This document shows positions 3,431-58,421 of a stretch of 64,000 nucleotides of DNA, piece by piece. The notes beneath the pieces are model-generated. The model saw only the letters and a list, made by a program, of their open reading frames with translations. It did not search any database and was not told the origin of the DNA. This DNA comes from Eledone cirrhosa (lineage: Eukaryota), in contig OZ024742.1 of the NCBI GenBank assembly GCA_964016885.1, forward strand, positions 179,738,001-179,802,000, in the 5' to 3' direction. How positions within the stretch are numbered: the stretch's first letter is position 1; the number at the start of each line of letters is the position of its first letter. A program made the translations under genes and the position numbers.

Positions 3431-3431
3431 T

Positions 3432-3930
3432 CATCATCATCATCATCAACGTTTAACGTCCGTGTTCCACGCTTGCATGGGTTTGGACGGGGGTAGTCCC
3501 ACTTGAGGCAAGAGTGATTGTCTTGCTCGCATAGGACTGTCTGGCAGGTTTTCTACAGTTGGATGCCCTTCCTAACACCAACCACATTTACAGTGTGGGT
3601 CTGGGAGGTTTTTACCGTGTTGCCTACACGGCCACATTACAGCGTGGACTGTGTGTTTTTTTGTCGTGACACCTACACGATCTCGTTTGTTTCGGCCTGG
3701 ATGGCGCGGCACCAACATAACTTTACATGGAACGGGGTGGTGTGGATGGGGTGGGGGTGGTTGCGGGACGGGGTGTAGTTTGTTAGAGATGCCTACTGGC
3801 AAGGCGGGTCTTCTCTGTTACTGAGTACCGCCAAAGGTCACGGTCCAGTGACATTGTCTTGGAGAGGTGTAAGTGTGTGAGGTCGGAGTTTATCAGCTCA
3901 TCCCATGTTTTTCTAGGTCTGCCTAAAACC
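3432..3930 (-). mobile_element. RTE LINE family A, 3' fragment
   Basis: GRPRKTWDELINSDL ORF end + 3'UTR + (GAT)n tail, matching 11770-12302. Confidence 0.9.
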
Positions 3931-5103: not shown

Positions 5104-5290
5104 ATAGGAATGAGTAGGACCCCGACGGCTGAGCTCAAGCCGTTTCGACGGCTAATTCTGAGTCCGTCGAAACGGCTTGAGCTCAGCCGTCGGGGTCCTA
5201 CTCATTCCTATTACTCACTCTACTACCCTAAGTATTGAGTAATTTGGTGCGTTATGGTCCACCTGGTTCCTTACCACATTTCCCCCGTTA
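5104..5290 (+). mobile_element. Fold-back element with 3' half of a hammerhead, family HH-h
   Basis: 48-bp perfect inverted arms 5104-5151/5164-5211 containing GAAAC-GGC..GCC-GTC-GGGG; homologues at 19393, 58422, 62282. Confidence 0.7.
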
Positions 5291-5308
5291 TATATATATA
5301 TATATATA

Positions 5309-8300
5309 TCATCATCATCATCATCATCAACGTTTAACGTCCGTGTTCCACGCTTGCATGGGTTTGGACGGGGGTATTCCCACTTGAGGCAAGAGTGATT
5401 GTCTTGCTCGCATAGGACTGTCTGGCAGGTTTTCTACAGTTGGATGCCCTTCCTAACACCAACCACATTTACAGTGTGGGTCTGGGAGGTTTTTACCGTG
5501 TTGCCTACACGGCCACATTACAGCGTGGACTGTGTGTTTTTTTGTCGTGACACCTACACGATCTCATTTGTTTCGGCCTCGATGGCGCGGCACCAACATA
5601 ACTTTACATAGAACGGGGTGGTGTGGATGGGGTGGGGTGGTGGTGGTGGGACGGGGTGTATTTTGTTAGAGATGCCTACTGGCTGGAGTAGGTTTTACTA
5701 TATATTTAGGTAAGGCGGGTCTTCTCTGTTACTGAGTACCGCCAAAGGTCTCGGTCCAGTGACATTGTCTTGGAGAGGTGTAAGTGTGTGATGTCGGAGT
5801 TTATCAGCTCGTCCCAGGTTTTTCTAGGTCTGCCTATTCAGTGACTACCGTCTATCTTTATTGCCCTGCACTTTGTTATACAGCTATCGACTTTCATGCG
5901 CATCACGTGTCCATACCAACGTAGCCTTCTCTCGAGTAAACAACATCTGATCCCTCTTATCTCTAATTTTTTCCTTAGTTCGTTTATGCTTTGCCTTTCA
6001 CGTATATTACTGTTACACATCCAGCGGAGCATGCAAGCTTCGTTCCTCTCTAGTCTGCGTATATCCTCTGCACACAATGCCCAGGTCTCACTGCCATGCA
6101 GCATTGCTGTTCGTATGCAGGCATCGTACAACCTGCCTTTCATTTTTTGGGAGAACCCTTTAGCAGCTAATAGTGGTATAAGCTCTCTGAACTTTTTCCA
6201 ACCAGTTCTGACTCTAGCTACAGTACTTTCAGAGCACCCTCCCCCACTGCTGATTTTATCGCCCAGGTAACAGAAGCTGTCCACTATTTCTATAGAACCC
6301 TCTGCGCAATTGAAAGAGCTAGTATTTTGTGGGCACTAGCTGCTACTTATTGCACCAGAGCACCGGCCACATGTAAAATCTATGTTCTTAGTTAGCTTAC
6401 CTGTGATCCCACTACATCTTTTATGCACCCATACTTTGCATTTAGGACATAAAATGGAGTTTCTACCTACGCCTTTCCTACACACCGAGCACGACCATTT
6501 CCCAGAAGGGACCGCCGCCTTGTTTTCTTTCCTACAAACTAGTACTTTGGTCTTAGCCAGGTTAATTTTAAATCCTTTTGATTCTAGGCCGTGCTTCCAT
6601 GTTTGGAATTTCTTCTCTAGCTCGGCCATTGATTCCGCTATGAGTGTCAGGTCGTCTGCGTATAGGAGTTCCCATGGGCAGCCTGTCTTGAACTCCTCTG
6701 TTATAGCCTGAAGGGCAATAATAAATAGTAGTTGGCTGAGAACAGAGCCCTGATGGACGCCAACTTTTACGCTAAACTCTTCACTATATTCGTTGTTAAT
6801 TCTAACCTTGCTGACTGTTTCTTTATACATGGCTTGTATAGCCCTCACAAGCCATTCGTCAACGCCTAGTTTTCTAAGAGCCCACCAGATAATGGAGCGG
6901 GGGACTCTGTCGAAGGCTTTCTCCAAGTCGACAAAAGCTAAGTAGAGGGGTTTACCTTTAGCTAGGTACTTCTCCTGTAGTTGTCGTACTATGAAAAGAG
7001 CGTCTGTGGTACTTTTGCCTGACACAAACCCGAACTGCATTTCATCTAGGTCAATTCTCTCTCTGATTAGTTGCGCTATTACTTTTTCCGTGAACTTCAT
7101 GACCTGGTCGATTAATTTAATGCCTCTATAGTTACTCCTATCTAGGGCGTCTCCTTTACCCTTATAACAGTTAACGATGATGCTGCTATGCCAGTCCTTC
7201 GGAACAACCCCATTCTGTACGACTTGGTTAACTATGCGGGTGACCATGGTGTGTCCCACCGTGCCAGATGCCTTCAGCATCTCAGCAACTATTTCCGAAG
7301 GCCCAGCCGCCTTACCCGTCTTCATATCCTTGATTGCCTTACTTATTATACTCCCCTCGACTAACACTGCTGGTCCCTCTATTGGGTCGATATGGGGGAG
7401 ACTGTCTTTCTCCCATTTATTCTCCTCATTTAGTAGCCTTTCATAGTGACACTTCCAAGCTACCTTCTTATCAGCGTCGGTGATGGCAAGTGTGCCATCG
7501 TCATTTAGTACACACTTCTCCCCGACAATATCACGGTTTTCCTTGACGCATTGCCTAGCAATCCTGAACACCTCACGTTTTTGGTCATCGCCTTGTAGAA
7601 CATGCTTGAACTTTCTTTCCTCAGCTTCCCTTCTTGCTAAGTACACTTGTCTCCTAGCTTCCCTCCTGGCCACTTGATAGTCTTCTCTACTTCCCCCATC
7701 CCGCCATACTTTCCAAGCCTGCTTTTTGGCCTTAATTGACCCCTCCACCTTACTGTTCCACCACCATGTTACTCTCCTCCTGCCTACAGGCCTGCTCCAG
7801 CCACAGACTTCGTCTGTCGCCAACAGCAGGTTTGCTTTCAGAAATTCCCACTCTCCCTCTATATTGTCCGACTCTAAATGTTCTTCCTTACTGTCGAAAG
7901 CATCAAGTAATATGCTTTGAAATTTATTCCTGGCTGTGGGGTCCTTTAGCTTCCATATTTTTCTCCTGAGGATAGTCCTCTTCTGCTGTCGAGTACGTCT
8001 CGTCCTGACTATGAGGTCGCTAATTATCAGTCTATGTTGGGAGGTGCATTCTTCATGGGGGAGGGATTTAGTGTTTACAACAGACACTCTGTCACGTCTT
8101 CTGGTAAGGATATAATCTACCTGGCTTGTGTGTTCCCCGGATCTATAGGTGATCAGGTGATTGTCACGTTTTTTGAAGTTAGTGTTACAGATAGTTAGGT
8201 TATTTGCATCACAGAATTCCAGGATTCTGGAGCCTTCCTCATTTCTAGTACCAAACCCATAGCCTCCATGGATTTCGTCGTAGCCGTCATAATGTTGTCC

Positions 8301-8454
8301 AATGTGACCATTTAGGTCGCCTGCAATAATTATATAGTCACTGTCGGATATTTGGGAGGTAGATAGCATCAGTGTCTCATAGAATCTGTCTTTTATAGTG
8401 CCGGGCAGTCCGGATTGGGGTGCGTACGCAGATATTACTGTCACCGTAGTTCTA
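5309..8454 (-). mobile_element. RTE LINE family A, 5'-truncated (left arm of 7-kb palindrome)
   Basis: APE C-half + RT + 3'UTR + (GAT)n; in-frame stops at 6336 and 5838. Confidence 0.95.
6336..8451 (-). pseudogene. LINE ORF: APE endonuclease (partial) + reverse transcriptase + PHD-like finger
   Basis: GDLNG, SQVDYIL, SQHRL (APE); QFGF, DLEKAFD, GVHQGS, YADD (RT); the first ~27 aa of the called ORF are read-through into the spacer. Confidence 0.9.
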
Positions 8455-8464
8455 TATATATATA

Positions 8465-9148
8465 TTAGAAAGTGAGGTTTTTTTTTACAAAATGAAAAAT
8501 AACCAGCTGTCAGGGTTCTGGCCATATTCACTGAACCAGAACATTTCTCCCAATCCCTTTTCCCTTGACCACTATCTCTCCATTGTCATAACATTCACTA
8601 TAAAGACTACAGAATAGTTTTCCAAATAAGGGCGCAAAAATGTAATGAAAACTTGTTCACGTGACAGCCAAATTTCATTTACAACCAACCAAAAAAAAGC
8701 CTTCGTGAGCCTCATTTTTTCAAGTAAAAAGAAATTCAAACACTCATATATGAAAAAAAACAACCTGTGACAACCCCCCCCCCCCCCCCTCTCTTATTTG
8801 AAGAACTATTGTAACGCGAACTGGCGCGAAATTTATTATAATTATTGACAAACCAATCAAATTACTTCTCGAAAAACCTGGCTTTCGAGCCACTTTTTCC
8901 ATATAAAACAAGTAACATTTAGAGACCAACCAGATGTGAGAAAAACCACAGTTCCTCCATCTCAACTCACCTTTTGAAAAGCAGAAGAACTGCGAAACCG
9001 GTAAAGGAACCAAATAAATATATATATTTAAAAAAAAAAATAAGACTTCAGTTGCATTTTCGATTTCATCCCTTTTTCTTTATACTTCCACTAGTGTAGG
9101 ACACCTCGGTTATTTTTCATTTTGTAAAAAAAAAACCTCACTTTCTAA
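8465..9148. mobile_element. ~685-bp non-coding spacer with ~40-bp terminal inverted repeats, TA-flanked (possible MITE)
   Basis: TTAGAAAGTGAGG(T)nACAAAATGAAAAATAACC at 8465-8504 mirrored at 9108-9148. Confidence 0.5.
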
Positions 9149-9150
9149 TA

Positions 9151-12100
9151 TAGAACTACGGTGACAGTAATATCTGCGTACGCACCCCAATCCGGACTGC
9201 CCGGCACTATAAAAGACAGATTCTATGAGACACTGATGCTAACTACCTCCCAAATATCCGACAGTGACTATATAATTATTGCAGGCGACCTAAATGGTCA
9301 CGTTGGACAACATTGTGACGGCTACGACGAAATCCATGGAGGCTATGGGTTTGGTACTAGAAATGAGGAAGGCTCCAGAATCATGGAATTCTGTGATGCA
9401 AATAACCTAACTATCTGTAACACTAACTTCAAAAAACGTGACAATCACCTGATCACCTATAGATCCGGGGAACACACAAGCCAGGTAGATTATATCCTTA
9501 CCAGAAGACGTGACAGAGTGTCTGTTGTAAACACTAAATCCCTCCCCCATGAAGAATGCACCTCCCAACATAGACTGATAATTAGCGACCTCATAGTCAG
9601 GACGAGACGTACTCGACAGCAGAAGAGGACTATCCTCAGGAGAAAAATATGGAAGCTAAAGGACCCCACAGCCAGGAATAAATTTCAAAGCATATTACTT
9701 GATGCTTTCGACAGTAAGGAAGAACATTTAGAGTCGGACAATATAGAGGGAGAGTGGGAATTTCTGAAAGCAAACCTGCTGTTGGCGACAGACGAAGTCT
9801 GTGGCTGGAGCAGGCCTGTAGGCAGGAGGAGAGTAACATGGTGGTGGAACAGTAAGGTGGAGGGGTCAATTAAGGCCAAAAAGCAGGCTTGGAAAGTATG
9901 GCGGGATGGGGGAAGTAGAAAAGACTATCAAGTGGCCAGGAGGGAAGCTAGGAGACAAGTGTACTTAGCAAGAAGGGAAGCTGAGGAAAGAAAGTTCAAG
10001 CATGTTCTACAAGGCGATGACCAAAAACGTGAGGTGTTCAGGATTGCTAGGCAATGCGTCAAGGAAAACCGTGATATTGTCGGGGAGAAGTGTGTACTAA
10101 ACGACGATGGCACACTTGCCATCACCGACGCTGATAAGAAGGTAGCTTGGAAGTGTCACTATGAAAGGCTACTAAATGAGGAGAATAAATGGGAGAAAGA
10201 CAGTCTCCCCCATATCGACCCAATAGAGGGACCAGCAAGTGTTAGTCGAGGGGAGTATAATAAGTAAGGCAATCAGGGATATGAAGACGGGTAAGGCGGC
10301 TGGGCCTTCGGAAATAGTTGCTGAGATGCTGAAGGCAGCTGGCACGGTGGGACACACCATGGTCACCCGCATAGTTAACCAAGTCGTACAGAATGGGGTT
10401 GTTCCGAAGGACTGGCATAGCAGCATCATCGTTAACTGTTATAAGGGTAAAGGAGACGCCCTAGATAGGAGTAACTATAGAGGCATTAAATTAATCGACC
10501 AGGTCATGAAGGTCACGGAAAAAGTAATAGCGCAACTAATCAGAGAGAGAATTGACCTAGATGAAATGCAGTTCGGGTTTGTGTCAGGCAAAAGTACCAC
10601 AGACGCTCTTTTCATAGTACGACAACTACAGGAGAAGTACCTAGCTAAAGGTAAACCCCTCTACTTAGCTTTTGTCGACTTGGAGAAAGCCTTCGACAGA
10701 GTCCCCCACTCCATTATCTGGTGGGCTCTTAGAAAACTAGGCGTTGATGAATGGCTTGTGAGGGCTATACAAGCCATGTATAAAGAAACAGTCAGCAAGG
10801 TTAGAATTAACAACGAATATAGTGAAGAGTTTAGCGTAAAAGTTGGCGTCCATCAGGGCTCTGCTCTCAGCCCCCTACTATTTATTATTGCCCTTCAGGC
10901 TATAACAGAGGAGTTCAAGACCGGCTGCCCATGGGAACTCCTATACGCAGACGACCTGGCACTCATAGCGGAATCAATGGCCGAGCTAGAGAAGAAATTC
11001 CAAACATGGAAGCACGGCCTAGAGTCTAAAGGACTTAAAATTAACCTGGCTAAGACCAAAGTTCTAGTTTATAGGAAAGAAAACAAGGCGGCGGTCCCTT
11101 CTGGGAAATGGTCGTGCTCGGTGTGTAGGAAAGGCATAGGTAGAAACTCCATTTTATGTCCTAAATGCAAAGTATGGGTGCATAAAAGATGTAGTGGGAT
11201 CACAGGTAAGCTAACTAAGAACATAGATTTTACATGTGGCCGGTGTTCTGGTGCAATAAGTAGCAGCAAGTGCCCACAAAATACTAGCTCTTTCAATTGC
11301 GCAGAGGGTTCTATAGAAATAGTGGACAGCTTCCGTTACCTGGGCGATAAAATCAGCAGTGGGGGAGGGTGCTCTGAAAGTACAGTAGCTAGAGTCAGAA
11401 CTGTTTGGAAAAAGTTCAGAGAGCTTATACCACTATTAGCTGCTAAAGGGTTCTCCCTAAAAATGAAAGGCAGGTTGTACGATGCCTGCATACGAACAGC
11501 AATGTTGCATGGCAGCGAGACCTGGGCATTGTGTGCAGAGGATATACGCAGACTAGAGAGGAACGAAGCTTGCATGCTCCGCTGGATGTGTAACAGTAAT
11601 ATACGTGAACGGCAAAGCATAAACAAACTAAGAAAAAAATTAGAGATAAGAGGGATCAGATGTTGTTTACTCGAGAGAAGGCTACGTTGGTATGGACACG
11701 TGATGCGCATGAAAGTCGATAGCTGTATGACAAAGTGCAGGGCAATAAAGATAGACGGTAGCCACGGAATAGGCAGACCTAGAAAAACCTGGGACGAGCT
11801 GATAAACTCCGACCTCACACACTTACACCTCTCCAAGACAATGTCACTGGACCGAGACCTTTGGCGGTACTCAGTAACAGAGAAGACCCGCCTTACCTAA
11901 ATATATAGTAAAACCTACTCTAGCCAGTAGGCATCTCTAACAAAATACACCCCGTCCCACCACCACCACCCCCACCCCATCCACACCACCCCGTTCTATG
12001 TAAAGTTATGTTGGTGCCGCGCCATCCAGGCCGAAAAAACAAATGAGATCGTGTAGGTGTCACGACAAAAAAACACACAGTCCACGCTGTAATGTGGCCG

Positions 12101-12298
12101 TGTAGGCAACACGGTAAAAACCTCCCAGACCCACACTGTAAATGTGGTTGGTGTTAGGAAGGGCATCCAACTGTAGAAAACCTGCCAGACAGTCCTATGC
12201 GAGCAAGACAATCACTCTTGCCTCAAGTGGGACTACCCCCATCCAAACCCATGCAAGCGTGGAACACGGACGTTAAACGTTGATAATGATGATGATGA

Positions 12299-12302
<4 letters not shown>
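9151..12302 (+). mobile_element. RTE LINE family A, 5'-truncated (right arm of palindrome)
   Basis: ORFs 9161-10267 and 10239-11900 are one ORF broken by a +1 A near 10237; 3'UTR and (GAT)n tail. Confidence 0.95.
10239..11900 (+). pseudogene. LINE reverse transcriptase with inserted PHD-type zinc finger, open to the natural stop
   Basis: YRGIKL, QFGF, DLEKAFD, QGS, YADD, C-x2-C..C-x2-C-x4-H-x2-C..C-x2-C, YLG, RLRWYGH, GRPRKTW. Confidence 0.9.
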
Positions 12303-12371
<69 letters not shown>

Positions 12372-12399
12372 TATTAATAAAATAGATGTTCTTTTGATC

Positions 12400-12462
12400 A
12401 ATTGCATTTTATTATACATATTTCGGATGTACAACTGTACGTCCTCATCAGACAAAATATAA
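12400..12462 (-). ncRNA. Type I hammerhead ribozyme (mirror copy)
   Basis: Reverse complement of 12560-12622 with few changes. Confidence 0.75.
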
Positions 12463-12559
12463 TGATACATGACATACCCTGAGATGTTAAATGGTTAAGA
12501 TTTAATCAAGGTAGTGATTAAATCTTAACCATTTAACATCTCAGGGTATGTCATGTATC

Positions 12560-12622
12560 ATTATATTTTGTCTGATGAGGACGTACTGTTGTACATCCGA
12601 AATACGTATAATAAAATGTAAT
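12560..12622 (+). ncRNA. Type I hammerhead ribozyme (AUA site after 12610)
   Basis: ATTATATTTTGT-CTGATGA-GGACGTAC-TGTT-GTACATCC-GAA-ATACGTAT-A-ATAAAATGTAAT; 12-bp stem I, palindromic stem III. Confidence 0.85.
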
Positions 12623-12794
12623 TGATCAAAAGAACATCTATTTTATTAATACTTATATTTTAATATTAATAACTCCTGAAAATTATTTTTACGTTGAGTG
12701 CTTCCAATCTACTGTAAAAATCATTCTTTGACATAATCATCGAATATTGTTTAACATTTAATACTTATATATATATATATATGTATGTATGTAT

Positions 12795-15444: not shown

Positions 15445-15788
15445 TTCATCATCATTCATTTCATTTTACGTCCGCTTTTCCCTGCTTGCAAGGGTGGGAC
15501 GGGAACTGATTCTGGCTTGATTTCTATAGCTGGATGCCCTTCCTAACACCATCCTCATTTACAGTGAGTGCTGGGTGCTTTTTTTGCCGTGGCACCTGCA
15601 CAACCACTTTGCAGTGGAATGATATGGACCCCAGTCCCTATCATCTCATTTCTACAGCTGAGTAAACTGGAGCAATGTGAAATAAAGTGTCTTGCTCAAG
15701 GAAACAACACATCACCCAGTCTGAGAATTGAACTCACAACCTTTCGATTGCAAGGCCAATGCTCTAACCACTAAGCCATGTGCCTCCA
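15445..15788 (-). mobile_element. tRNA-derived SINE family B, chimeric RTE tail
   Basis: Head GGCACATGGCTTAGTGGTTAGAGC..GAGTTCAATTC; core TCCTTGAGCAAGACAC; RTE-type 3' end. Confidence 0.85.
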
Positions 15789-19397: not shown

Positions 19398-19590
19398 AAA
19401 ATGTTTAACCCTGACGGCAGAGCTCAAGCCGTTTCGACGGCTATTTCTGGACTCAGAAATAGCCGTCGAAACGGCTTGAGTTCTGCCGCCGGGGTTAAAC
19501 ATTTTCCTATTACCCACTCTACTACCCTAAGTATTAAGTACTCTGGTGCGTTATGGTCCATCTGGTTCCTTACCACACCTCCTTCATTAT
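19393..19590 (+). mobile_element. Fold-back half-hammerhead element, family HH-h
   Basis: 57-bp arms 19393-19449/19454-19510; same tail as 5212-5290; inside (TA)n. Confidence 0.7.
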
Positions 19591-20070: not shown

Positions 20071-20836
20071 TAATGTACAGATTTTCCTTCATTTCTCTGC
20101 CTCCACAAATCCTAATTCTAGCGTATTTTAATCCTAATTCTAGCGTATTTTCAAAACAATCCATATTTCGTATCAAGTCCAAATAGCCAATCTATCGCTA
20201 AAACAAACTACATTTTTTGTTTTTATTAATTGTTAAATACGAAAGTTTTTGGTCGTATTGAACAGAACAAATTTTGTATTTTTGTTAATCGCTTGTTAAA
20301 TGCAAGGACCCCATTCAATCATTACCTTCTATCTAGCGTATTTTCAAACCTTAATTCCTAACGTATTTTCAAACCTCAATCCCTAATTCTAGCGTATCTT
20401 CAAAACAAAATCCTTTCCTTCTTCCTTCTTCGAAGGCATGGGGCGGTCAAACGCCTAACACACACAACCATCATGCGCCCCCCTCTCTCTCTCTCTCTAT
20501 ATATATGATAGGAATTCACTTCGCCAAATTTCATTGCTTGCTGTCTAGCCCCACGATATTCATGTAACGTAATGTACAGATTTTCCTTCATTTCTCTGCC
20601 TCCACAAATCCTAATTCTAGCGTATTTTAATCCTAATTCTAGCGTATTTTCAAAACAATCCATATTTCGTATCAAGTCCAAATAGCCAATCTATCGCTAA
20701 AACAAACTACATTTTTTGTTTTTATTAATTGTTAAATACGAAAGTTTTTGGTCGTATTGAACAGAACAAATTTTGTATTTTTGTTAATCGCTTGTTAAAT
20801 GCAAGGACCCCATTCAATCATTACCTTCTATCTAGC
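20071..20836. repeat. 267-bp near-perfect direct repeat (20071-20337 = 20570-20836) with AATCCTAATTCTAGCGTATTTT subrepeats
   Basis: Directly visible, offset 499 bp. Confidence 0.9.
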
Positions 20837-20845
20837 TACCCAACA

Positions 20846-20931
20846 CCCCCACGCACTACCATTGCTATTACGTGGACCAATCATAAAACAGAGCCCCCAC
20901 GCATCACCAGTATTATTACGCGGACCAATCA
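20846..20931 (+). promoter_or_regulatory. Candidate Pol II promoter: tandem CCCCACGCA..GGACCAATCA modules
   Basis: Two CCAAT boxes (20877, 20925) at 48-bp period, CpG-containing, just upstream of LINE 5' end. Confidence 0.35.
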
Positions 20932-20979
20932 GAAGCCAGAGGCCTATACTATCGCTTGCCTGGTTGCCTTTCGATATAT

Positions 20980-22908
20980 GATGGATGGATGGACTGCGGA
21001 ATCCTGGAGAGTGGAGGAGAGAGAGAGAAAAATCTGGACGCTCAAGCGACAATGCCAAAGATAAAGACAAATTCACCTCTTGGACGAGAATGCGAGCACT
21101 CCTCATTGTTTCGACCGCGGACGGCTAACATAACCCCATCGCCCCCGCCCCCACCGCCCCCAACCCCCAAACGCAATCCAAAACTTCAGAGTTGGTACCA
21201 TAAATGTAGGCACCCTAAAGGGTCGCGCTAACGAGGTTGTAGAAATGCTTGAACGTAACGAGGTCGATGTTTGTTGTATTCAAGAGACCAGGTGGAGGGG
21301 TGGGTCTGCTAGGTTCATTGAGGGTAAAAAACGATGTTATAAGCTTTTCTGGGTGGGAAACGACGATGGGCTGGGTGGAGTAGGAATCATGGTAGCAGAA
21401 AAGTGGGCAGATAAGATAATAGACGTAAATAGAGTGAACGACAGAATAATTAAAATACGACTTGCCCTCAATAGAACTACGGTGACAGTAATATCTGCGT
21501 ACGCACCCCAATCCGGACTGCCCGGCACTATAAAAGACAGATTCTATGAGACACTGATGCTAACTACCTCCCAAATATCCGACAGTGACTATATAATTAT
21601 TGCAGGCGACCTAAATGGTCACGTTGGACAACATTGTGACGGCTACGACGAAATCCATGGAGGCTATGGGTTTGGTACTAGAAATGAGGAAGGCTCCAGA
21701 ATCCTGGAATTCTGTGATGCAAATAACCTAACTATCTGTAACACTAACTTCAAAAAACGTGACAATCACCTGATCACCTATAGATCCGGGGAACACACAA
21801 GCTAGGTAGATTATATCCTTACCAGAAGACGTGACAGAGTGTCTGTTGTAAACACTAAATCCCTCCCCCATGAAGAATGCACCTCCCAACATAGACTGAT
21901 AATTAGCGACCTCATAGTCAGGACGAGACGTACTCGACAGCAGAAGAGGACTATCCTCAGGAGAAAAATATGGAAGCTAAAGGACCCCACAGCCAGGAAT
22001 AAATTTCAAAGCATATTACTTGATGCTTTCGACAGTAAGGAAGAACATTTAGAGTCGGACAATATAGAGGGAGAGTGGGAATTTCTGAAAGCAAACCTGC
22101 TGTTGGCGACAGACGAAGCCTGTGGCTGGAGCAGGCCTGTAGGCAGGAGGAGAGAAACATGGTGGTGGAACAGTAAGGTGGAGGGGTCAATTAAGGCCAA
22201 AAAGCAGGCTTGGAAAGTATGGCGGGATGGGGGAAGTAGAAAAGACTATCAAGTGGCCAGGAGGGAAGCTAGGAGACAAGTGTACTTAGCAAGAAGGGAA
22301 GCTGAGGAAAGAAAGTTCAAGCATGTTCTACAACGCGATGACCAAAAACGTGAGGTGTTCAGGATTGCTAGACAATGCGTCAAGGAAAACCGTGATATTG
22401 TCGGGGAGAAGTGTGTACTAAACGACGATGGCACACTTGCCATCACCGACGCTGATAAGAAGGTAGCTTGGAAGTGTCACTATGAAAGGCTACTAAATGA
22501 GGAGAATAAATGGGAGAAAGACAGTCTCCCCCATATCGACCCAATAGAGGGACCAGCAGTGTTAGTCGAGGGGAGTATAATAAGTAAGGCAATCAAGGAT
22601 ATGAAGACGGTTATGTTGGTGCCGCGCCATCCAGGCCGAAACAAATGAGATCGTGTAGGTGTCATGACAAAAAAACACACAGTCCACGCTGTAATGTGGC
22701 CGTGTAGGCAACACGGTAAAAACCTCCCAGACCCACACTGTAAATGTGGTTGGTGTTAGGAAGGGCATCCAACTGTAGAAAACCTGCCAGACAGTCCTAT
22801 GCGAGCAAGACAATCACTCTTGCCTCAAGTGGGACTACCCCCGTCCAAACCCATGCAAGCGTGGAACACGGACGTTAAACGTTGATGATGATGATGATGA
22901 TGATGATA
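20980..22908 (+). mobile_element. RTE LINE family A with intact 5' region but RT removed (22610/22611 junction)
   Basis: ATG 21052, frameshift in C-rich run, FRVGTINVGTL..CCIQETRW APE start, stop at 21803; joins directly to 3'UTR and (GAT)n; 5' boundary approximate. Confidence 0.9.
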
Positions 22909-39689: not shown

Positions 39690-40023
39690 ATCATCATCAT
39701 TTTACGTCCGCTTTTCTCTGCTTGCTAGGGTGGGACGGGAACTGATTCTGGCTTGATTTCTACAGCTGGATGCCCTTCCTAACACCAACCTCATTTACAG
39801 TGAGTGGTGGGTGCTTTTTTGCCGTGGCACCTCCACAAGCACTTTGCAGTGGAATGATAGGGACCCCAGTCCCTATCATCTCATTTCTATAGCTGAGTAA
39901 ACTGGAGCAATGTGAAATAAAGTGTCTTGCTCAAGGAAACAACACATCACCCGGTTTGAGAATTGAACTCACAACCTTTCGATTGCAAGGCCAATGCTCT
40001 AACCACTAAGCCATGTGCCTCCT
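39690..40023 (-). mobile_element. SINE family B, chimeric tail
   Basis: Near-identical to 15445-15788 and 57248-57594. Confidence 0.85.
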
Positions 40024-40511
40024 TGTATTTGTATATATTTTTAATTTCTGTCTGTAAATCTGTGATATCACTGCATATCTAATTATCCATGAACTATTAT
40101 CATCACACACACATATCACAAACACACACACATATATATGCATATATATACAGTCTTCTTTGTATGTATATGCATATACATACAAAGAAGACTGTATAAT
40201 TTGATGAAATAAAATTGACCCTATATTTTTAAGACAGATTATATAAAGATAAAGCAAGAGAAAGAGTGAGGGGAGAAATAGGGGGATGAAATAACTAAAG
40301 ACAATGACTTCACAAAATGGTTTTACTCATCATTTTGAATGGATGCATCATTGTAATTGATAAAATTGGTGCCATGTTTGACAACAGGGATTAATGATAA
40401 TAAACAACAAACAAAGAATATAAATAATTAGTTATTATTGTTTATAATTGTCCTATTTTATATATTCTTTGTTGATCTATGTTAGTGGTGGTGGTGGTTG
40501 TCATCATCATC

Positions 40512-57247: not shown

Positions 57248-57594
57248 TCATCATCATCATCATCATCATCTTTTACGTCCACTTTTCCCTGCTTGCAAGG
57301 GTGGGACGGGAACTGATTCTGGCTTGATTTCTACAGCTGGATGCCCTTCCTAACACCAACCTCATTTACAGTGAGTGCTGGGTGCTATTTTGCCGTGGCA
57401 CCTCCACGACCAATTTGCAGTGGAATGATATGGACCCCAGTCCCTATCATCTCATTTCTGCAGCTGAGTAAACTGGAGCAATGTGAAATAAAGTGTCTTG
57501 CTCAAGGACACAATACATCACCCAGTCTGAGAATTGAACTCACAACCTTTCGATTGCAAGCCCAATGCTCTAACCACTAAGCCATGTGCCTCCA
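57248..57594 (-). mobile_element. SINE family B, chimeric tail
   Basis: As 15445-15788. Confidence 0.85.
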
Positions 57595-58421
57595 TGTGTA
57601 TGTATACATATATATAGTGGCTAACGGTAACAATATGAATTAATAACTGAAAGCCTGTCACCTTCTTTAATTTGCTTGTTCTGTCTTTCTGACGTGAAAG
57701 ACCTTGGATGGATGTTGCCTCATGCTGCCAGCTTAGCAGCAATATCTGTTAATTACAATATTATAACTTGTTTGAAAATTGTGCTTTGTGTTCTGAATAA
57801 AAAAAAGAAGGCTAAGATTGAAAATAAGATTTTGTTATAAAACGAAATGATTAATTACAATTTAAAGAAAAACAAAAGATAAAATGTTCCCTTGCTCAGA
57901 GGAATTAATGAAATAGAAAAACTGTCCATCACATTGGTTCTTTTCTTAAACCACGTATTACAGCTGTCTTGATGTATTTTCTTGAATTCTGTAGAGAGAT
58001 AAAGATTCCACATTTGTCACATTTTCTGTCCTTCAGCCATGTCATGTATGAAATGATACCACTGCTGTGCTGCCATTAATTTGGTCAACATTCCGCATGA
58101 CTAGTGATTGTTACATTGTAGTGACAACAGTAAGTTAGAACATGGCTTGACAATCGTGGAGTCGTTATAATAAACAAAGCTTGCCCGATCTCATAAAAAT
58201 ACGTAAGCACGTCCTGGGAATTTAAATCAGATAACAGTCTATGTAATTAAATATATATCTCTATATATATAGGTTTCTTAGGTCACTAAATATAGGCCGG
58301 TTCGTAGCCATTAAATCAGAAACATTGGTGCTTTTATCGAATTCCAGGAAAGGTCTTATTTGGGAAAATTAGAACTGTATTTGTAGTTATGGAGAAAATT
58401 GGTTGTATATATATATATACA

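Follow-up and report, generated by a model that had tools for sequence, protein, structure and literature searches.

An internally deleted RTE-like LINE copy with intron-like ends in Eledone cirrhosa

Splicing of LINE transcripts has been described for human L1, whose spliced RNAs retrotranspose as dead ends and leave spliced integrated retrotransposed elements (SpIREs) in the genome (PMC5860796). In that account, SpIREs are 131 recurrent copies in three classes, 116 of them in one class, and amount to ~2% of full-length L1; one class needs ORF1p in trans (PMC5860796). Another L1 splice, SpORF2, leaves out ORF1 and preserves a functional ORF2, as shown in RNA (PMC2896524). Internally deleted derivatives are reported to arise in RTE, Ingi, Vingi and R2, and the bipartite non-autonomous forms include Bov-A, RTESINE1/2 and WALLSI3 of RTE, as well as forms in Vingi and Ingi/RIME (PMC5786205). 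The same source lists HAL1, HeT-A and Ag-Sponge as protein-coding non-autonomous LINEs (PMC5786205). Short-tandem-repeat tails and insertion signatures of RTE have been described (PMC6007223), an octopus RTE, RTE-2_OV, has a single ORF of ~1,100 aa with EN, RT and a zinc finger (PMC9115989), and a repeat annotation with active RTE families is available (PMC13282606). The string "splic" is absent from the main texts of the last two sources (PMC9115989, PMC13282606) and from the main text on the bipartite RTE derivatives (PMC5786205). A search of the openly accessible literature brought up no account of a spliced or RT-spliced RTE copy.

Here, we describe a LINE copy lacking its RT in a window of Eledone cirrhosa DNA, the window being the whole analysed stretch of 64,000 nucleotides. 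Like SpIREs, it is a genomic LINE copy without a GT-AG-bounded internal segment and a dead end; SpIRE junctions recur and lie in the 5' UTR or 5' UTR/ORF1 (PMC5860796), whereas this junction is single and removes the RT of a single-ORF RTE-like element. As with SpORF2, splicing of the LINE RNA would alter the protein made, but SpORF2 is the reverse case, keeping the RT that is removed here (PMC2896524), and the present event, set against both L1 systems, is known from DNA alone. Like the bipartite RTE derivatives, the copy keeps a 5' part and the 3' recognition end, has lost the middle and needs an autonomous element; those derivatives are amplified and mostly UTR-only (PMC5786205), whereas this copy keeps a broken APE and is single and unamplified. 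It shares with HAL1, HeT-A and Ag-Sponge the absence of RT and the retention of a 5' coding part, but these are maintained multi-copy families encoding ORF1p, whereas the deleted copy is single and carries a stop.

Anatomy of the deleted copy and its family

The features of the deleted copy and of its two closest neighbours in the window are as follows.

20071..22907, + strand: entire LINE copy with the internal deletion (APE-RT type, RTE-like by anatomy); insertion site, a (TA)n tract
20071..20984, + strand: 5' UTR, about two ~500-bp tandem monomers plus a unique part
20985..21128, + strand: 47-codon upstream ORF, ending 5 nt ahead of the main frame
21134..21805, + strand: APE endonuclease frame, 223 aa, closed by TAG at 21803-21805 (Pfam PF03372, E 1.9e-10)
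21806..22648, + strand: rest of APE and linker, then 12 novel codons from the 3' UTR (VMLVPRHPGRNK followed by a stop)
22610..22611, + strand: deletion junction with 1-nt ambiguity, single in the genome
22611..22907, + strand: surviving end of the 3' UTR with the (GAT)8 tail, 99.6% identical to several intact copies
9150..12300, + strand: 5'-truncated unspliced sister with RVT_1 (E 4e-33) and PHD; its 10291-12005 is the segment absent from the deleted copy
5300..8455, - strand: second unspliced sister, inverted, sharing both the 5' truncation point and the ~45-nt 5' flank of the first

The initial annotation placed the start of the element at 20980; the element in fact begins near 20071 and includes two ~500-bp monomers that other long copies also have, and the units 20071-20337 and 20570-20836 are 100% identical over 267 nt. 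When 20 long copies were extended upstream, the number and order of monomers were found to be variable. The family 5' end is an array of ~500-bp monomers, at least three in L166 and L169 (window 20071-20984; L162-L181), which contain (CT)n(AT)n, with CCAAT-like boxes farther downstream. Such an array is reminiscent of rodent L1 monomer promoters. At the other end the copy carries its (GAT)8 tail, and TA repeats flank it on both sides, so that no TSD is definable. With both ends retained and the middle lost, it has the anatomy of a bipartite non-autonomous LINE.

The APE frame at 21134..21805 resembles L1 ORF2 endonuclease chains. The first in-frame ATG of the main frame lies at 21245, past the first endonuclease motif, and the upstream ORF lies just ahead, so that the main frame could be translated only by reinitiation, by frameshifting or from a non-AUG start. 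No Pfam match was found in 21806..22648, and a homologue search with the linker returned only hypothetical proteins.

A single long APE-RT ORF, the absence of ORF1 and a short-tandem-repeat tail are hallmarks of RTE elements. The family shows this anatomy, on which, rather than on a tree, the RTE label is based. Intact copies have frames of 1,000-1,177 aa from stop to stop, and a frame of at least 1000 aa is kept in 39/167 sampled copies; by description, they resemble RTE-2_OV (PMC9115989). In the homologue search, relatives of the RT and PHD showed 47-74% identity, none of them named as RTE. RT with an internal PHD finger is widespread, both among unnamed metagenome-derived proteins and in records from cnidarians, bivalves and amphioxus (P0001-P0120).

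The window also contains tRNA-headed SINE-like elements, all on the - strand (57262-57609, 39690-40038 and about 15510-15780), whose 3' part is 78-81% like the LINE at 22689-22791 (over 104 nt). The many intact frames and the tRNA-headed elements sharing the 3' region make trans-mobilisation credible. Short palindromic MITE-like hairpin elements lie beside LINE copies at about 12375-12650, 19400-19500 and 5110-5200. One subfamily shares a loss of 28 nt from the 3' UTR, immediately 5' of the branch-like motif (window 3431-3925; L069, L102, L104 and others), carried by 12/100 donor-anchored copies (minus L032) and by the copy at 3431 of the window. Tandem duplications of 3' segments, often of ~120 nt of the 3' UTR, occur in many copies (L081, L103, L115, L155, L191-L254) as subfamily traits.

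The two 3.15-kb sisters, at 5300-8511 (-) and 9109-12300 (+), lie back to back around 600 nt of unique DNA and are 98.2% alike, and their flank-element join occurs in only these two places in the genome. Judged from their sequences, they are a local inverted duplication. A rare A allele at 22241 and 9920, present in 1/145 copies, is common only to the deleted copy and the + sister, which lies at a distance of 12 kb, and not to the - sister; this may be a short gene-conversion tract or chance.

The junction and its splice-like ends

Re-alignment reproduced the junction of the initial annotation, at 22610/22611 with 1,715 nt missing that begin GTAAGG and end TAAAG. The deleted copy is 99.2% identical to the + sister up to 22610-22613, and the alignment resumes from 22610 to the tail; the absent segment, 10291-12005, contains the RT (RVT_1), the PHD and the start of the 3' UTR. 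The previously noted 1-nt ambiguity, a G common to both sides of the join, was confirmed, and the deletion can therefore be read as GG..AA or as GT..AG, the latter in one of the two registers. Also present were the CTAAC at 11937-11941 with a C-rich, AG-free stretch up to the acceptor (73 nt without AG) and the 3' recognition end and tail that had been described as kept. The claim on the joined frame stood in part: the frame ends in VMLVPRHPGRNK and a stop as proposed, but APE and linker are not intact, being interrupted by the TAG at 21803-21805.

The donor CGG/GTAAGG ranked second of 213 GT sites by pairing energy with a U1 5' end, a measure that is not specific to the species. By length of its AG-free zone, the acceptor ranks third of 323 AGs. 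It is among the 4/323 AGs that combine CTRAY in the AG-free zone with a pyrimidine content of 60% or more, and no other AG lies between it and the CTAAC. Counting against splicing, it is an AAG with a C-rich, T-poor tract (T 20%). At the best textbook acceptor of the element, a T-rich CAG/G at reference position 2572, a spliced join was found in 0/9 matches.

An ordinary internal deletion, by end-joining after insertion or by an RT template jump during insertion, would have to mimic GT-AG ends by chance. To quantify this, random deletions following the family's microhomology spectrum were simulated: 1.6% had GT..AG ends, 0.07% had GTRAG..AG and 0.001% had GTRAG with a branch-point acceptor, a strict pattern that was set post hoc, after the site had been seen. 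With 142-500 deletions per genome (142 being 6% of the 2,365 APE-anchor copies), the expected look-alikes are 2-8 for GT..AG, 0.1-0.4 for GTRAG..AG and 0.001-0.005 for the strict pattern. Plain look-alikes are thus expected under ordinary deletion, whereas the location of both breakpoints on some of the element's best splice-like sites argues against it. Further against splicing, the copy was picked for looking spliced, from many families. Taken together, the ends are moderately more splice-like than chance would give. Extended homology between the breakpoints was considered and rejected, since only 8/20 positions match and 12% of random pairs equal that; the breakpoint microhomology is 1 nt only.

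The two halves of the deleted copy, 5' and 3', are 99.4% and 99.6% identical to L095 and match the same young subfamily, and the copy is thus not a chimera of subfamilies. At 22665 the deleted copy has T where intact copies have C. A misassembly fusing separate parts of a high-copy repeat could be suggested by the high copy number of the family, by the near-identical sisters 10 kb away and by the rare A at 22241 shared with the + sister only. However, the deleted copy has its own 5' monomers, its own flanks and 7 near-private variants before the junction, and a misjoin on 1 nt of homology is unlikely; we regard an artefact as exceedingly improbable.

The TAG at 21803-21805 splits the joined frame into 223 and 280 aa just before the VDYIL...HRL endonuclease end, and the deleted copy therefore cannot make a whole endonuclease. 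CAG replaces it in 127/128 other copies covering the site. The TAG-bearing 28-mer has 13 genomic matches with differing haplotypes, which we read as recurrent mutation. A stop-bearing source clade was rejected, 0/12 other TAG places sharing the rare-allele set of the deleted copy. The stop is one of ~7 near-private changes in the 1,440 nt before the junction and probably post-dates the insertion. If so, it disables this copy only and is uninformative on the coding capacity of a spliced RNA from an intact source.

Other deletions in the family and recurrence of the join

We surveyed internal deletions in 385 fetched loci, a pattern-anchored, partly overlapping set with many loci from contig C1 and not a random sample. 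Thirty-seven deletions of at least 50 nt were found: the one described here, 7 that were dropped for poor fit (none GT..AG) and 29 other clean ones. Among these 29, one had GT..AG, two GC..AG and none antisense GT..AG ends; microhomology was 2-5 nt in 22 and 0-1 nt in 7; 8 were at least 500 nt and 3 were over 1 kb; and no deletion was seen at two independent loci within the 385. The breakpoints of other deleted copies thus speak against a splice family, 28/29 being not GT..AG and most falling at microhomologies. In 67 newly fetched 5'-anchored copies, 5 had deletions of at least 200 nt.

The frequency of such losses, both in the 385 loci and in the 5'-anchored copies, favours an ordinary deletion, as does the listing of RTE as one of four clades that throw off internally deleted forms (PMC5786205). 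A natural control is L285 (G000:C3, near 115.87 Mb), which has lost 2,278 nt between the linker and the 3' UTR at a 4-nt microhomology and lacks a splice signal there; it shows that copies of this family can lose the RT and keep both ends without any splicing. RT-removing deletions without splice signals were also found in L008 and L345, and the ACGG site of the present donor is also the start of microhomology deletions with non-AG ends in L007, L022, L295, L302 and L308. Two further copies point the same way: L053 (81% identity, 268 nt; 1 of 14 matches) has GT..AG at the strongest donor but with 4-5 nt of microhomology and a purine-rich acceptor, and the L035 deletion stops 10 nt 5' of the acceptor of the deleted copy and lacks a terminal AG. 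On the other side, the single nucleotide of microhomology in the deleted copy contrasts with at least 2 nt in 22/29 others, and a size above 1 kb was reached in only 3/29. An ordinary deletion is quite possible, if short of probable.

The initial annotation had further proposed an alternative splice of the RTE family, giving a trans-mobilised derivative or an endonuclease-only regulator, and independent insertions with the exact junction were looked for. The junction 22-mer had one match in the 3.0-Gb genome, at this locus only, and a 25-mer over the junction, with up to 3 mismatches allowed, likewise had one. By comparison, the intact donor 23-mer had 1,688 matches, the APE anchor 2,365 and the intact acceptor 26-mer 4,107.

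Variant sites were then covered. On the donor side with a non-G after the exon, 1/15 matches was joined, the deleted copy itself, with a pattern whose last letter excluded some possible products. No long join was present in 120 donor-variant loci (30 of 90 with the older variant, 30 of 566 with G-starting exons, and 30 of 191 and 30 of 322 with the strongest donor), which included three short microhomology deletions at the same ACGG site. On the acceptor side, matches with the base changed at -2, -3 or -4 (11 + 10 + 9) comprised the deleted copy, 22 with point changes or small indels, 6 that are 5'-truncated and 1 with an inversion. Upstream exons ending in AAAG, a partial coverage of such joins, gave 0/2 joined matches. 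A match across the junction in L021 is not a join, as a tandem repeat follows. In four unlabelled contig runs aligned to the sister, none of the 15 joints listed of 102 was this junction, and in four runs from two samples aligned to the 79-nt junction sequence no bridging piece was among the 30 listed of 506; we take neither result as evidence. As 6/19 matches, plus L046, are 5'-truncated at the acceptor, this site might seem a truncation hot spot. The idea was rejected: copy number falls from 4,107 at the acceptor to 1,688 at the donor, 1,715 nt away, or roughly 1.4 per nt, which about explains these truncations.

A regulated alternative splice would agree with the fact that most copies have kept the donor (1,688 matches), the branch motif (context identical in 96/102 matched copies) and the acceptor (4,107 matches), and with the join from an intact source staying in frame as APE, linker and 12 aa. 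Conservation of the sites, however, is expected without selection in a young family; one joined copy against 1,688 is <0.1%, compared with ~2% of full-length L1 for SpIREs; no other join turned up in the 15 donor-side matches, 120 donor-variant loci and 30 acceptor-side matches; and the APE of the one joined copy carries a stop. These results leave the proposal, whether as a non-autonomous subfamily or as an endonuclease-only protein, unsupported and very improbable, and bring it close to refuted at the DNA level.

Origin of the copy and its meaning

The deletion is real and unique, and it has intron-like ends in a dead LINE copy. For its origin, splicing of this one junction is plausible and slightly favoured. 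We suggest that the transcript of an intact element may have been cut by the spliceosome at a cryptic donor-acceptor pair, and that the spliced RNA, with its 3' recognition end retained, would have been reverse-transcribed in trans by the RT of an intact sister into the TA tract. After insertion, the copy would have gained its ~7 near-private changes, the stop included. The dependence on trans-mobilisation counts against a splice origin, as an RNA without RT cannot move in cis. As no other copy found carries the join, the event was probably a single splicing error rather than the regulated production of a short form, and as no offspring of the deleted copy was found in the searches, it is a dead end like the human SpIREs.

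The deleted copy is thus somewhat probably a one-off cryptic splice product, mobilised in trans and now dead, resembling a SpIRE. Because the strict pattern was post hoc and the case was picked from many families, we go only this far, and chance deletion keeps a substantial share of the probability. A one-off splice is the better bet than a chance deletion, and a non-autonomous family, a regulated isoform and an endonuclease-only protein are unsupported. A broader reading is doubtful: that low-level splicing turns RTE-type LINE RNA into an RT-less message coding for APE only, which intact elements mobilise in trans, and that this is one of the ways in which bipartite non-autonomous RTE derivatives are born, the present copy being a fossil of it outside mammals.

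As it stands, the locus is one dead copy among thousands, with no sign of function. If its splice origin is true, spliced LINE retrocopies would extend beyond mammalian L1 to the removal of the RT in a single-ORF RTE-like element, and splicing would offer a testable answer to why RTE yields internally deleted derivatives, which was called unexplained in PMC5786205.
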